NCBI GenBank assembly: GCA_051047955.1
Contig: JBPGPT010000012.1
Coordinates: forward strand, 124,001-188,000
Source of the DNA: Cystobasidiomycetes sp. EMM_F5
Taxonomy: Eukaryota
Direction: 5' to 3'
Length of the DNA: 64,000 nt
Position 1 is the stretch's first letter. Each line of letters begins with the position of its first letter. The position numbers were made by a program, and so were the translations under genes. Below are positions 24,950 to 31,449 of this stretch, piece after piece. Under the pieces are notes generated by a model that worked only from the letters and a program-made list of their open reading frames with translations, searched no databases and was not told the origin of the DNA.

Positions 24950-26909
24950 TTACGACACATTCAGCTTCTTCGCTACCTGTTTCTTTAGGCGTCGCATCTT
25001 TCCTTGCTGTAGCACCGGCGTAATCACATATTAGTAAGTCTGTCGCCAGCTCGAATTGTAATAGATAGGGCCGGTGCCACTTACAGCCGCGTGTAGCGTG
25101 TTTGCTCGTTCAACGAACCACAGTTTCAACTGCAAGAAACAATTCAGCCATTCCATTTCTACGCACCTAATCATAATCATACCTCTGTCGTTCCAACCTT
25201 GACTTGGCTTAGGTCTGCTCCCTGGGATTCCAATTCATCGATAAAGTGCCTGAAGTAGTTTGCTTTGGTCCGGTAGTGACCAGACATTGGGTTACATTTC
25301 AGTAAAACTCCATCTCGAACAATCATGGTACCAGCAGATGTGATGGGCCCTCCGGCCAAGAAGGATGAATGCTGAAAAGTGCCCTTCTGTTTAATCCCAA
25401 CGTACAGACGGTAATCTGCGAGATTTACATCAGTGGCCATCGCCATAATTTAGCTTTGTTAACATCGCTCACTCTCATCGGATACGTAGATCCAGACATC
25501 CCCCTTCTCCTTTTTCGCTTCATGCTTGCTCATCTGCCCATTTTTAGAGATCTTGCCGCTGTCCGGGTCCGATCGTAAAGGTTTGAAAGTATCAGATGAG
25601 GTGCGCCTGAGTGCAGTCGGCCTGGTAAAGTCGACACTGCTGTGCGAGGATGACGAGTCGTCGAAGTCTGCAGAATTGGATGACGTTTCTGAAGAATCAT
25701 CACCCGTGTCGCTTTCGCTTCCTGTACTCGACGGGGTCCTTGCGTCGCCGGCGGCATGCACGGCGTCAGAAGGCGCCATGCCTTGACCTTGACCAAGATC
25801 TGTCCAGTTCCGGGCGGTCTGATGCATTGATGGAGAGTCAGAGTAGGTCTGTGAGCGATTTACATAGTCTTATATTACCGTATCGACCGGCGGATGGGCG
25901 TCGCCAGTATATTCCACAGCTTGACGAGTCGGCGAGGCCCAACGAAATTTGCCATCCGAAGAATCCACTGCCACTAAGTAGTGCTTCCTCTGCTCGGCGG
26001 TAAGGTAGATGATGCACTCCTTCTCAAGCTTCTCACGAGGACACTCCTTAAGTGACAGCGACGCGCCCTCTCCATGATCCAGCCAATCAAAGCTATAGCA
26101 ACGGCAGCTTCAGCCTATCGCAACGTATCGCAATGCTCAGACCGGCATACAAGCTGCCCTGCGTGTCCTTGCGGGATTGCCATTCTTCGAAATAGTATTT
26201 CATGTTGGAGCCGTATCGGTGCTTCTCATCTAGCATTTCCAGCCAATGCTGTTCCTCTAACTTCTTCTTGACTTTGACTGCCTTTTGGCCCTCCTTGCGC
26301 CCAAATGGTTTCCGGTGGCCGGATGCATCACGATTGTAGGCGTAGGCCTTTGCAATTTTGATCTTGTCCTTTGCGGTAGCTCCTTTAGCGTCCTTTAAGA
26401 CATTGGCCAGCGTATTTGGGACAGTCTCCGTCTGCTCTGCATTGCGCTTATCCTCTTTCTTTTCCCGCGCAGCATTCGGGGCACGTGAGCCTGCGTCGCC
26501 AGATAATCTCCCGGCCAGTGAAGCTCCTTGTTGCCATTTATCGAGCGGAGTGCCGTTACTCTTGCTTGACTTGCCTTCTGTAAAGTGTTGCGCACGGATA
26601 AGTCGAATTCGGACCGAATTCCAGAAATAGCTGTACTGTCAGGATACCTGTCAAAGTGAACTTTTCAGCCTACTCACCTGGCTCAGCGAGCCTTCCCGAC
26701 TTGCGACTGCTGCGGAACAAGTCTTGTATGACTTTGGCTGCGTCTTCCTGGCGTAACCTACCATTCTTCTGGCTGGAACCAGTCGTAGCAGCTGTTTGTG
26801 GCTGTGACGTCGGCTGCCGGGACTTTGCAGCTTCCAGGTCAAATGCCCGTTTGATGGCAGCCGCAGCCCGACGGTCTCTCTCGTCGTCGTCTGGCAGGCT
26901 GTCGCTCAT
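24950..26909 (-). CDS. IQ calmodulin-binding motif protein (IQM-like)
   Basis: AAKVIQDLFR, KHRYGSNMKYY, WLDHGEG, CPREKLE, WIYVSD, KGTFQHSSFLAGGPITSAG..PMSGHYR. Confidence 0.85.
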
Positions 26910-27057
26910 GTTGCATTATAATTTTGTTGGGTAGGCCGCATCGAAGTCGGGCAAGAGTAGAAGTGCTGGTTTATTGTGAACCACACGACACCGCATCCGA
27001 CCTGCTGGACAGGTTGCCGGCTGCGCTCACATTCACTTGCCTTCTATATCTTGCAAT

Positions 27058-27880
27058 ATGCCAGACATGTCCGGAAAGCTAGAGTTGATGCACCTGGTTG
27101 AGCGGCTCAAGCTCCAAAAGCGCACTGGCTGGGTCCGCGAGGGCTGCAGAGACCCTGAATCAATTGCAGACCATATGTACCGAATGGCAGTCATGGCTCT
27201 ACTGTCCGAGGAGGACGAAGAGCTCGATGTCGCAAAATGCGTTCAGATGGCTGTGGTTCATGACCTGGCTGAAGCTGAAGTTGGCGACATCACGCCGTTC
27301 GATGGCATATCCAAAGAGGAAAAGCAGGCTCGCGAGACTGTGCGAACGTCATTCATCAAGCACATTAGGCTGCAGCAGATCGCTGATATATCTGTCCTAC
27401 AAGGCTGCAATGCATCGAATCACGAATACACTCCTTCAGCCGTCTGGACCAGCAGCAAGGCGCATCGATAGTTTATGGCACGAATACGAAGCTGGACAAA
27501 GTCGCGAGGCGATGTTCGTAAAAGACCTCGATAGGCTGGAGATGGCTCTTCAAGCTTCCGAGTATGAATCTGCTCAAGGTAGTAAACGAATGCAGCCTTT
27601 CTTTGAGAGTTCGATACCCAAAATCGCACATCCGGAGGTTAGGAGTTGGGCGAGTGCTTTGTGAGCGCAACTCCTTGCAATACCCTATGTAGGCCGCTAA
27701 CCGAATTACAGGATGCACCAACGCCAGAAAGCGCATTCTCAGGATGAAAATTATCAGCACGTCTCCACTTCGACAGACCTGGATCTCACCGAGCCGCATC
27801 CCACGACTGAGGAGCTACCATCGATCGTTGGGACGCCAGGCGCTCTTATAGCTGTTCTGGATGCTCACGAAGAGGTATAA
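27058..27880 (+). CDS. HD-domain 5'-deoxynucleotidase (HDDC2/YGK1-like)
   Basis: LKLQKRTGWV, ESIADHMYRMA, MAVVHDLAEAEVGDITP, LWHEYE, FVKDLDRLEMALQASEYE. Confidence 0.92.
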
Positions 27881-29036
27881 TCCAAACTCCTCGGCCCTTC
27901 TGAAAAGACTGCGAACTAGCGTCTTTTTCTCTTTCCGCCTCCCGAAACACTTCATCCGGTGTGCTAGATATTCGATTTATACACGTCCCTGGCAGCCCAA
28001 CCGCCAGCGGACGTTGCCGATGCATCCAATACTACAAGCATGACGTCCACTTCCCAGTCAGGGCTAGGGTTTATTGATGCAAAGAAGACCTATGTCGAAA
28101 TCAGTATCGATATTCCAGTACGGAGTAAGCCTCGAGACCCGCGGGATAAGAAAAGGCACAGAACCAAACTGCAACAGCACCACGACACGCGAATGCGTGA
28201 CCTAGAGCAGAAGCTTCACTCATTTCGACATATTCAGGTTGAGATACAGCAGGATTTGGGCGGGCTGCATCATCGGGCTGGCGACACCGGTTCAGTCGTA
28301 TGGCGAGCAAGGTCAGTCGTCATGAATATGCCAAAGGCGTCGAATTCGTGGCTAACCCTTGGCTTGCGGAAGCGTCGAGTTTTCCCGTTTCGTGCTGACC
28401 CAGGCGTTTGATGAGACTACGAACTCCTTCCTGAATAGCCATGCATGCCGCAATGGCGATGTTCTTGAGCTTGGGTCAGGCACGGGTGTACTAGCCCTTC
28501 TGCTCGCACCGCTCTTCCGATCTTGGACTGCCACAGACACGGAGAGTATGTTACCGTTGATTAACAAAAACGTCAAGCGGAATGCGGACCGAGCACAGCT
28601 TGGAAATATCAAAGTGGAAGAGTTGGACTGGACATGGTCAGCTAAGCAATTCCAGCGGATGTTTCCACCTACGGACAATCGACTATGCGAATACCAAGCA
28701 ATTTTTGCTGTAGACTGTCTCTTCAACGAAGCACTCGTGCAGCCGCTGATAGATACGCTCGACCGCATTTCGGCACGCTCAGTATTCATCATTTCCGAGC
28801 TGCGCAGCGAGACTGTGCTGCAGCTGTTTCTGGAGAAGTGGCTCGGTGTAAGAGAAGGCAAGGACGGCAGCGCTAGTTGGAAGTGGAGAATCTGGCGAAG
28901 CTGCAAACACGGCGATGAGCTACAAATAGACTTAGATGGCGTACCGCATCTGGAAAAGCTGCCACTTCTTGGTCGTAAATACGTGGTATGGACAGCCTGG
29001 CGCCTAAGCGAGTCAGGTGGCCACTATGAAGCCTGA
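27713..29036 (+). CDS. RKM5: Rkm5-like seven-beta-strand lysine methyltransferase (5' end shared with the HD gene)
   Basis: DAHEE|IFDLYT, GLGFID, QQDLGGL..RAGDTGSVVWRAS, motif I VLELGSGTG, ATD, EELDW, IFAVDCLFNEAL, ISELRS. Confidence 0.75.
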
Positions 29037-29142
29037 AAGCCAAAGTTGTAAGCAAGGAAACACAGCTTGACGGCGTGCAGAAAGCAATGGATTTACAGCA
29101 TCGGACAAGGCCTGACTAGTGGGGAAAAGGCATGCTGGTATG

Positions 29143-31449
29143 CTACACTTGCATCATCTCGTAGTCTTGCTGCTCCTGCTTAATTGGAACAATTACAATG
29201 CCAAGAGCGTTGCTAGGGCATATCTCCCAGATGAGTCTGCGTCTGCTTCGAAGTTCTGCGGTTTCTTTTTTGCGATGCTGTAACAGTCTCGAGGGAATAG
29301 CGTCCATCAAAGGAACCCTTTCCAAAGCGGTAGACAGAGCGCTCTTGTCCAAGGTCACATCACCGTTATGTATAGCTTGTGATTGAGGTAGAGAAGACGG
29401 CGATGGTTGTGGTAAGAGTGTTGGTGCGTTTCGTATATGCTTCGTGGGCGAGGTGACACAGCTACATCTTTGCTCAATTGAGCGTCTGTCCATCTCTTGC
29501 ATAGCGACTTCACTCCGGCTGACGAAAGCTTGAAGGCGAGATATAGTATCGCGTGCCAATGCACACTCCCTTGCCAGCTCGTCGCGCAGGACTTGCAAAT
29601 GATTTTCGTGCGCGATTGGGTGCTGTTCTTGATGCGGATTGGGGGTGGAACCTTCGTTAACGTCTAAAGGATCCGTAGCCGCCCTAAGCGGTGCGTCGGA
29701 CATCAAATGCAGCGGGTGAGAATGGGCATCCAGCAATGCAGTGTCGAGCCGAGTCGAATGTTCCAATGATCGCTCATGGTTGGAGTGCATAGCGAGGGCG
29801 GCCACTGCAGCGAGCTCGGGCAAAGTGAGATGCTCTGACCGCGCTGAAGAGAGGTTGGCTTCATCGGTCACAGACAAGTTGTCTGACATAGGCGGAGGCG
29901 AAGTAGAAGACCCAGAGGCAGCAGTCACCGTTCCCAGTGCTTTCCGCGCCTTTTTACGAGCAGGCTGACCAGATGGATTGCGCCCTCTATTCATTTTGCG
30001 TGCGGATTGCATTTCGTCTAATCGATGTACTGATTGCGCTTGATCGAGTTCGACTGATTCATCGGGATTATCGGCGGACATGGGAAGATTTGTGGCGTAG
30101 GCAAGCGGACTGTCTGAGCCAGGGGCAGACTCTTGCAGATACTTCGACGACCCCGCAGGCGTAGCGGTAACTATTCGTTTGCGCCTCTTGATTGTGGGTT
30201 TGCTGAGATTAACGGGTCTATGCACACCGTGCAATTTACAGTAAAGTCCTGCAGCGAGAGAATTAGCCAGGGACACGACATGTTTAGCTCCACATACCAC
30301 ACGCATTGCAAGCTACTCGACCTTCAACATCCCTTCTCCACAGAGGAGTCGTCTTTGTCCCACAGTTCTCGCACATCATTGCACTAATGGCTGGATCGGC
30401 TGAACGGTTCAGTCCTGACGGAGCGGTAGTGGAGGCATTGGTAGGGCCTGCGAGAGAATTTTGATTCCCACTAGTATCTATCTTATCGACAGCCACACGC
30501 GCTGGCTCCGTTGCACCCGATTCCCTGCCCTCTTGGGTAGTGATTTCGACTGTAGAAGGTTTGGATCCGCCGTTGTCAATGTCCGCAGTACTAGATGATG
30601 CAGCTGTAGACTTTCGGAAACGGTTATTGAATGCGGGACAGCCGTTGCAGCAGGTTCTTCCGCCTTCTCCGTTGCAGTGCCCGTCACCTGGGCAAGTCAT
30701 AGCGGGGGCTGTCAACGGCTTCGCATTTGGACGTTTGAGATGCGGCTGAGAACGCGCATCGAACTTTGAGGGCATGGAAGAAACAGAAGCACTTGCCCTT
30801 GCTACCGGCGAAGGTGATCGTGAGTCTGGCGCTTTGTGTTTGCTGTCAGTGTTGTTCCCCTCCAGAACTGGTGACGAGTCAGGAATGGAGACGGTAGACG
30901 CAACAGGTCTCACAGACCGTGCTTGCACAGGTATCGATATGTGCGGCATGGGGGCAGGTATTGCTTCGGAGTCAACGTTTGTAGGCCGAGAAGCTTCGCT
31001 TGGCTGACTAGCAGGCGTTGGTTGCGTGGAAGGGCGACGCACGGTAGCGAGACCTGCAAAGCCTCATCATCAGCAGGTGCTTTTTTCGCAGACCACTAAT
31101 CATACATACCGCAGGCATTGCAGACGGGTTTGGCAGTTGAATCCCGACGCCACAGCGGTGTTGCTGCTGTTCCGCAAAAGAAACAGCGAGCCGAGACGGG
31201 CGCAGGTGACATCTCTGGCGCGCCAGGCTGCAACTGCCGCTTTCGAGGCTCTGATACTGCCGTTGCTGATGTTGCTTGCGAGATTGGTAATTGGGCGCTG
31301 TTTCCAGCACTGCTAGGAAACTGGCTGCGATGCAAGTCGTGCTGCTGCTGGAGCAGGCTCTGCAGCTGGAAATGCGACGTGTTAGGTGACGGGAGGCCAG
31401 GCGAGGCTGCCATTATCCCGTTGCCTCGCTGCTTGTCCATTCTGCCCAC
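29143..31449 (-). CDS. sreA: Iron-responsive GATA repressor (SreA/Urbs1/Fep1 type)
   Basis: Two GATA fingers ([40 protein letters not shown]) flanking the Cys-rich [21 protein letters not shown]-terminal coiled coil. Confidence 0.92.

Follow-up and report, generated by a model that had tools for sequence, protein, structure and literature searches.

A candidate fusion of an HD-domain phosphohydrolase gene and a Family 16 methyltransferase gene through one exon in Cystobasidiomycetes sp. EMM_F5

Do two adjacent enzyme genes in the fungus Cystobasidiomycetes sp. EMM_F5 encode two proteins, or have they become one? The question is raised by positions 27,058 to 29,036 of a stretch of 64,000 nucleotides (nt), hereafter the window (assembly GCA_051047955.1, contig JBPGPT010000012.1, positions 124,001 to 188,000 of the forward strand). 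Here a gene for an HD-domain phosphohydrolase of the HDDC2/YfbR type (the HD gene) is followed by a gene for a putative protein methyltransferase of Family 16. All coordinates below are those of the window, and features lie on the plus strand unless stated otherwise. The original prediction for this locus held that removing two introns, one on either side of the exon at 27712-27874, joins the two genes in a single frame, so that the locus would hold either a single gene for a fused enzyme or a pair of genes with a coding exon in common. Its coordinates were all reproduced (the start at 27058, the WASAL end of the HD frame, the introns 27661-27711 and 27875-27967, the frame from 27713, the AG at 27918-27919, ATG 28040 and the end at 29036), and both splices gain support from a motif of methyltransferase homologues, from the C-terminal tail of HD homologues and from the layout implied in a relative. 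Our preferred reading, which we hold with slightly better than even confidence, is a lineage-specific HD-methyltransferase fusion from which the fused protein would be made; we infer the splicing itself, and the union of all exons in a single messenger RNA (mRNA), from the DNA.

Two candidate splices around one exon

Read without further splicing, the HD frame ends in ...HPEVRSWASAL, followed by TGA at 27662-27664. This stop falls within a candidate phase-2 intron of 51 nt at 27661-27711, which has a GTGAGC donor, CTAAC at 27697-27701 (11 nt before its end) and a CAG ending at 27711, and which holds a second in-frame stop, TAA, at 27698-27700. The base after CAG completes the leucine codon of WASAL, and ATG 27713 comes next. 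We aligned 14 of the 21 HD homologues found, leaving out P0045, P0046, P0048, P0051, P0055, P0058 and P0059; 13 of the aligned proteins reach the C-terminus, and these continue for 6-22 residues beyond the leucine (L) of a W-x3-L motif, with arginine at L+4 in all 13 and glutamate at L+3 in 11. The unspliced window protein would end exactly at this conserved leucine, whereas the spliced protein would go on as L-M-H-Q-R-Q-K-A-H-S. The family tail W-x3-L-x2-(E)-R is matched in the window, as LMHQR, only with the 51-nt intron removed.

A profile built from the 13 homologues gave 264.9 bits to the protein ending at the leucine and 271.9 bits when the first 20 spliced residues were included; shuffled versions of this 20-residue tail scored 268.0 +/- 1.1 bits, with 4 of 500 reaching 271.9. 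In addition, we counted a strict intron-like pattern (GTRNGY followed by CTRAC and YAG, 45-80 nt in all) throughout the 64-kb window. It occurs 22 times on the plus strand and 20 times on the minus strand, compared with 12.5 +/- 4.8 per strand in 30 dinucleotide-preserving shuffles of the window. Because the shuffled rate amounts to only about 2 per 10,000 start positions, and yet here the pattern sits exactly on a stop codon and keeps the frame, a chance origin of the 51-nt element is unlikely; the estimate is post hoc. Taken with the homologue alignment, these results support a 27660/27712 splice that would restore the conserved HD C-terminal tail. An alternative donor, GTTAGG at 27638, spliced to an acceptor at 27727, keeps the frame and would lose the conserved V-x-x-W..L block; it was rejected.

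Downstream of the acceptor, the frame from ATG 27713 runs for 54 codons (MHQRQK...DAHEE) and then meets GTA TAA at 27875-27880. The predicted intron that begins here, at 27875-27967, is 93 nt long and in phase 0, extends from GTATAA to TAG, and contains the in-frame TAA (27878-27880) as well as an extra AG at 27918-27919. After the TAG ending at 27967 the frame resumes at 27968 with IFDLYT ... GLGFIDAKK and continues onward. A HMMER search of the whole library with exon 27968-28312 as query returned 35 proteins at E <= 0.001, and a word-based search yielded two Calocera proteins, the best named methyltransferase matches, one of which is also among the 35. Nineteen of the 35 were retrieved, and 10 of these (P0007, P0013, P0018, P0019, P0020, P0022, P0027, P0029, P0033 and P0037) were aligned together with an eleventh homologue, P0006, from the word-based search, the criterion being that the sequence reaches the N-terminus.

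In 10 of the 11 aligned homologues, D-x-(D/Q)-E-E-(V/I) stands directly before (F/L)-x-(L/I)-Y...LA...GLGF.D; the eleventh reads ADQEI. The counterpart in the window, LDAHEE/IFDLYTSLAA, is formed only across the 27874/27968 junction, and the alignment supports this junction as one that would rebuild the methyltransferase N-terminal motif. The shorter motif E-x-F-x-x-Y ... LGF.D, which the original prediction gave as the start of Rkm5 homologues, is present in the spliced window and in the 11 basidiomycete homologues, with leucine in place of phenylalanine in P0013 and P0022. Six of the retrieved fragments of open reading frame (ORF) type (P0009, P0010, P0012, P0031, P0038 and P0041) diverge from the family exactly upstream of (V/I)F, four of them reading Q there, and this divergence point may mark an intron that other species have in the same position. 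Because the residues before the junction align with homologue N-termini, the methyltransferase would need exon 27712-27874, and ATG 28040 would not be its start.

The 93-nt intron has two further features. TATAAT and a CT-rich tract at 27876-27945 could represent either a polypyrimidine tract or an internal promoter. The original prediction had also suggested that an alternative acceptor at 27919 yields a third C-terminus. The AG is present, and its use would add 15 codons before a stop; support for such a product came from no source, and we set it aside.

Since both flanking splices gain comparative support, the exon between them, 27712-27874 (163 nt), appears to encode both the HD tail and the methyltransferase N-terminus. 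Its start (MHQRQKAHS...) matches the tail of the HD homologue profile, and its final 20 residues, LPSIVGTPGALIAVLDAHEE, align with the N-terminal segments of methyltransferase homologues. The alignments support a single frame in which about 30 poorly conserved residues separate the HD tail from the N-terminal segment of the methyltransferase. When the exon alone (P0002) was used as a query against longer proteins, no match was obtained among 22 candidates. ATG 27713, one base after the acceptor and with A at -3, is the sole Met codon of the exon, and its translation confirmed the earlier statement that this is the only in-frame methionine between the 27711 acceptor and the methyltransferase motif. 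It lies 54 residues before the family motif, whereas the 11 stand-alone methyltransferase homologues have a methionine of their own 10-51 residues upstream of EE; in this respect, and in having its N-terminus in an exon common with the upstream gene, the window methyltransferase differs from its Family 16 homologues. One further Logan sequence, P0011 (296 amino acids, on a 3133-nt contig), has a spliced methyltransferase ORF that starts only at M-P-GLGF, and its contig has room for a gene upstream.

The corresponding exon in a relative

A comparable arrangement is implied by P0057, a 181-residue Logan ORF on unspliced DNA with 78% identity to HD exon 2, and by its cluster mate P0063, which differs at one residue. 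P0057 begins in the HD frame, which it leaves past ...ASEYER; its last residues before the stop read ...SDIVHSMNERQASQAGNTDYKHV...LVKLPNGSGQVTDADEEV. BLASTP aligned MHQRQKAHSQDENYQHV with MNERQASQAGNTDYKHV, and a D-A-x-E-E-V-stop ending is common to P0057 and the window exon, which is homologous to the end of this ORF. Between these parts, the P0057 stretch KACSSSSSRLSPNFSIQRSKAGDESC agrees with the HD C-terminus in one frame only, each triplet of which takes the third base of a codon plus two bases from its successor. This offset frame permits ..L-Q-x-F-F-E-S-S-L-P-K-L-x-H-P-E-V-x-G-W-G-x-x-L, so that 17 of 25 window residues are possible, H-P-E-V and W included, compared with 5 and 13 at best, whatever the offset, in the other two frames. 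The single difference in P0063 changes the possible Glu of FFESS to Asp, the HD family consensus. Residues 62-87 of P0057 seemingly cover an extra HD intron after ...ASEYE(R) that is absent from the window, with the HD sequence resuming at ..LQ.FFESS in another frame.

The amino acids of P0057 also constrain its splice sites. Cys-Met-Phe forces G(T/C)ATGT from the third base of the same leucine codon that holds the window donor, while His-Ser-Met permits CAY-AG (a YAG acceptor) one base before ATG. The intron implied in this way is 52 nt long, and its removal joins the HD frame to M-N-E-R(Q), placing Glu at L+3 and Arg at L+4. The methionine of MNERQ is the conserved counterpart of ATG 27713, and at the other end of the exon GTN is again followed by a stop. 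Together these features imply the same layout in the relative, with a donor in the same leucine codon, the same phase and a frame that is kept despite intron lengths of 51 and 52 nt. Both species would thus remain in frame despite unequal intron lengths and unequal genomic frame relations, as selection on the spliced frame predicts. The exon is open in both, over 54 codons in the window and 51 in the relative, and in neither does a methionine occur after the opening codon of the exon and before the methyltransferase motif. Conservation is seen at both ends of the exon but not in its middle, which is the pattern expected of two domains with a linker.

One fused protein or separate products

With all four introns removed, the five exons of the locus join into a frame of 569 codons (1710 nt) that is open throughout, with no internal stop. 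In the fusion that we favour, one transcription unit would encode an HDDC2/YfbR-type HD phosphohydrolase fused to a Family 16 protein lysine methyltransferase. Removal of the 51-nt intron, and the HD stop with it, would let the frame pass from WASAL into exon 27712-27874, through the L-MHQR... tail and a linker of about 30 residues; removal of the 93-nt intron and of a 61-nt intron further downstream would then carry it to the TGA ending at 29036, giving a 569-residue protein. Such a gene may have originated when the last HD exon merged with the first methyltransferase exon, the former spacer becoming the linker.

The locus might also make more than one product. Both introns that flank the shared exon have an in-frame stop within their first six bases (L-stop and V-stop), a feature that the other two introns lack. 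Retention of the 51-nt intron would give a 180-residue HD protein and retention of the 93-nt intron one of 235 residues, and ATG 27713, on transcripts with the 51-nt intron retained or with their start inside it, could give a stand-alone methyltransferase of 389 residues. We consider it rather unlikely that the exon serves as a splicing-controlled three-way switch, conserved between species, that selects the HD enzyme alone, the methyltransferase alone or the fusion.

Several observations weigh against the fusion. Run X1, the only run obtained for 26950-29150, which contains 5% of the sampled words and whose nature as RNA is only a guess, has no contig over 27250-28210, so that neither disputed junction is covered by RNA. 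Its contigs comprise a 47-base piece on HD exon 1 that comes from another organism and two of 151 bases on the methyltransferase, matching at about 95-97%. An HD plus methyltransferase architecture in related genomes, which the original prediction had proposed looking for, is implied for P0057 and P0063 and is absent elsewhere: no fused protein occurs among the 35 methyltransferase matches (the longest has 430 amino acids) or the other 20 HD matches (the longest has 263), and none of the ESM Atlas clusters in the neighbourhood of the methyltransferase domain includes an HD family. The layout of P0057 is itself deduced from amino acids with ambiguous codons; its Cys codon may give GC rather than GT, its Ser codon need not be AGY, and Asp-Glu may hide an HD-frame TGA two codons before the leucine. 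The gain of 7 bits on the HD profile is small and lends modest support, in a direction that agrees with the splice. ATG 27713, with A at -3 and conserved in the relative, would also fit an independent methyltransferase start, and the in-frame stop that opens each flanking intron also fits separate products. At +5 and +6 the GTATAA donor is unlike the usual fungal one, and a consensus branch site is not evident, which bears out the earlier judgement that both are weak. Two accepted introns of the locus end in AAG rather than YAG (27401-27403 and 28370-28372), with GTGCGA and GTCAGT as donors, and in a fungus whose splice signals look so loose the GTATAA donor is less odd. Donor hexamers tabulated from candidate introns in the window (700 and 968) were too noisy to judge GTATAA, and the tabulation was dropped.

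The strongest alternative, possible though in our view doubtful, is that two genes share the coding exon and make separate proteins only. HD mRNAs would splice the 51-nt intron and then end after, or retain, the 93-nt intron, giving 235 residues that end in ...DAHEEV; methyltransferase mRNAs, beginning within the 51-nt intron or slightly upstream of it, would be translated from ATG 27713 and lose the 93-nt intron, for a product of 389 residues. The adenine at -3 of that ATG and its retention as the methionine of MNERQ in the relative speak for this reading, as does the stop that directly follows GTA in the window and GTN in the relative. The weak GTATAA donor favours it too, the homologues found are all stand-alone enzymes, and co-transcribed neighbours in Agaricomycetes are described as being transcribed independently as well (PMC4503453). 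This arrangement would, however, require a promoter inside the HD coding sequence, and it would leave the HD protein bearing the conserved N-terminal segment of the methyltransferase as a useless tail. Moreover, the HD homologue P0044 also has methionine at L+1, so ATG 27713 may be an inherited tail residue rather than a start codon.

Distinctly less likely is a plain tandem pair in which the 51-nt element is not spliced at all. The HD protein would then end at WASAL after 180 residues, with the methyltransferase ATG at 27713 lying 48 nt past the HD stop on an overlapping transcript or a bicistronic mRNA, and the likeness of MHQR... to HD tails would be chance or a relic. The genome is compact enough for this: the divergent start codons at 26915 and 27058 stand about 145 nt apart, and the convergent gene ends, 29036 and 29146, about 110 nt; strict intron-like patterns arise by chance at the rate per strand seen in the shuffles, and polycistronic transcripts are described in Agaricomycetes (PMC4503453). 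Against it, the HD protein would be without the tail, invariant arginine included, that all 13 homologues possess; the relative, whose intron differs in length, repeats the donor position, the phase and the in-frame result; and only the 4 shuffled tails in 500 fit the HD profile as well as the real one.

Finally, a separate methyltransferase gene starting at ATG 28040, with nothing upstream coding for it, is hardly credible: this ATG has A at -3, follows a possible promoter in the TATAAT and CT-rich tract at 27876-27945 and is where ORF call P0008 starts, but upstream of it, conserved in the open frame of the window, stands the family motif (D/Q)EE-(V/I)F.LY..LA, a seven-codon upstream ORF from ATG 28019 to TGA 28041-28043 overlaps it as ATGA, and P0008 is a mechanical call, not a gene model, that runs into the 61-nt intron skipped by an X1 contig.

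The favoured fusion resembles, and differs from, two known kinds of transcription unit. In transcription-mediated gene fusion, or tandem chimerism, which is known mainly from animals, an upstream exon is spliced past its stop into the downstream gene. The locus differs from this in that no intergenic spacer is left, and the start codon of the downstream gene is seemingly only the first codon of the shared exon. With the polycistronic units described for Agaricomycetes (Gordon et al. 2015, PMC4503453), where co-transcribed pairs are reported to keep their configuration among species, the locus has in common a pair of tandem same-strand neighbours close enough for co-transcription. The ORFs of those units are kept apart and have independent transcripts as well, whereas in the window two introns would join the ORFs in frame to make one protein. 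The locus would be a gene fusion or chimeric read-through gene, of a known kind and with a new pair of domains. A literature search found no report of a gene fusion between an HD domain and a lysine methyltransferase in fungi.

The two enzymes and their neighbours

The HD part of the locus comprises two exons upstream of the disputed region. Exon 1 (27058-27339) spans 94 codons from ATG 27058-27060 and matches Pfam HD_3 (PF13023) at E 4.1e-30, with 105.3 bits over profile positions 1-82; exon 2 (27404-27660), which ends with the first two bases of the leucine codon of WASAL, matches at E 8.3e-13, with 49 bits over positions 85-149 of 165. The curated cut-off of this family is 22.5 bits. Between them lies an intron additional to those of the original prediction, 27340-27403 (64 nt, GTGCGA to AAG), across which the profile resumes from 82 to 85. 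Exon 2 is 56-68% identical to named Cantharellales HD proteins (Cantharellus, Hydnum and three Ceratobasidium records), the best matches being Cantharellus at 68% and Hydnum at 61%, then Ceratobasidium. Thirteen metagenome loci matching exon 2 at 38-64% identity were too distant and were not used.

The translation contains the His ... His-Asp ... Asp residues that bind metal in this family, in ..IADHMYR.. and ..VVHDLAEA.. of exon 1 and ..FVKDLDRLE.. of exon 2. The core FVKDLDR.EMALQA.EYE is invariant, its FVKDLDR block in all 15 aligned sequences. The HD_3 matches in both exons and this core make the HD part an ordinary HDDC2/YfbR family member, an HD-domain phosphohydrolase and probably a 5'-nucleotidase. 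The family is described as one of ubiquitous HD-domain 5'-nucleotidases (PMC5098729). Its 21 relatives found here are all stand-alone proteins of 154-263 residues, whereas in the window the stop codon would be intronic and the frame would enter the methyltransferase gene.

Downstream of the 93-nt intron, the first methyltransferase exon of its own (27968-28311) extends from IFDLYT to GDTGSVVWRA, includes the internal ATG 28040 and is matched by the homologues. It is followed by an intron of 61 nt at 28312-28372 (GTCAGT, CTAAC, AAG), also additional to the introns of the original prediction; one X1 contig skips exactly 61 bases with GT..AG ends, and methyltransferase homologues read WRAS unbroken across its position. 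The last exon (28373-29036) carries the Methyltransf_16 domain and ends with TGA at 29034-29036. The match to Methyltransf_16 (PF10294) has E 2.9e-17 and 63.4 bits against a cut-off of 21, over profile positions 36-158 of 174. The closest solved chains are 7oas (E 1.6e-9), named only as an AdoMet-dependent (S-adenosylmethionine-dependent) methyltransferase superfamily member, and METTL21D (E about 2e-9). GDTGSVVW and LELGSGTG, candidates for the segment of the active-site tryptophan and for the glycine-rich AdoMet-binding motif, are both present in the window, with conserved counterparts among the aligned homologues. An ESM Atlas search with the methyltransferase domain returned Methyltransf_16 clusters only, and one with the N-terminal methyltransferase exon gave no usable match. 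Among the homologues, P0029 carries the source name 'Ribosomal protein lysine methyltransferase', the one hint of an Rkm5 orthologue.

On the strength of these matches, the downstream part is a regular Methyltransf_16 (Family 16) enzyme, for which the label Rkm5 is only putative; it is through its PF10294 match that it resembles the family to which yeast Rkm5 belongs. According to PMC5324768, Rkm5 is the yeast monomethylase of K47 in RPL1A/B, the active-site tryptophan of Efm2 is W222, and in Family 16 enzymes the N-terminal part is variable and thought to set the choice of substrate.

The locus is closely hemmed in on both sides. On the minus strand downstream, a gene at 29146-31063 runs towards the methyltransferase gene and ends about 110 nt from its stop; the ORF piece 30287-31063 encodes a GATA zinc finger (PF00320, E 7.9e-9), and the gene seems to continue into ORF 29146-30312. 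Upstream, a divergent minus-strand neighbour at 26673-26915 has its start at 26915-26913 (MSDSLPDD...), about 145 nt from the HD ATG, and has no Pfam match. Because so few nucleotides separate the two starts, the common promoter region would be very short.

Beyond its own biology, the locus holds a lesson for annotation. ORF callers cut the methyltransferase at ATG 28040, and a gene model that follows the stop codon would shorten the HD protein by at least 6 tail residues; both errors arise because introns hide stop codons. If the fusion is real, the pairing of HD_3 with Methyltransf_16, absent from the 56 relatives examined, would constitute a new domain combination, and it would point to a functional connection of an HDDC2-type nucleotidase with a lysine methyltransferase of Family 16. 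If instead the exon is shared between separate genes or acts as a switch, the locus would provide a compact fungal case of splicing that chooses between separate and fused enzymes, and the three-way switch, if true, would link the turnover of nucleotides with methylation of the translation machinery.

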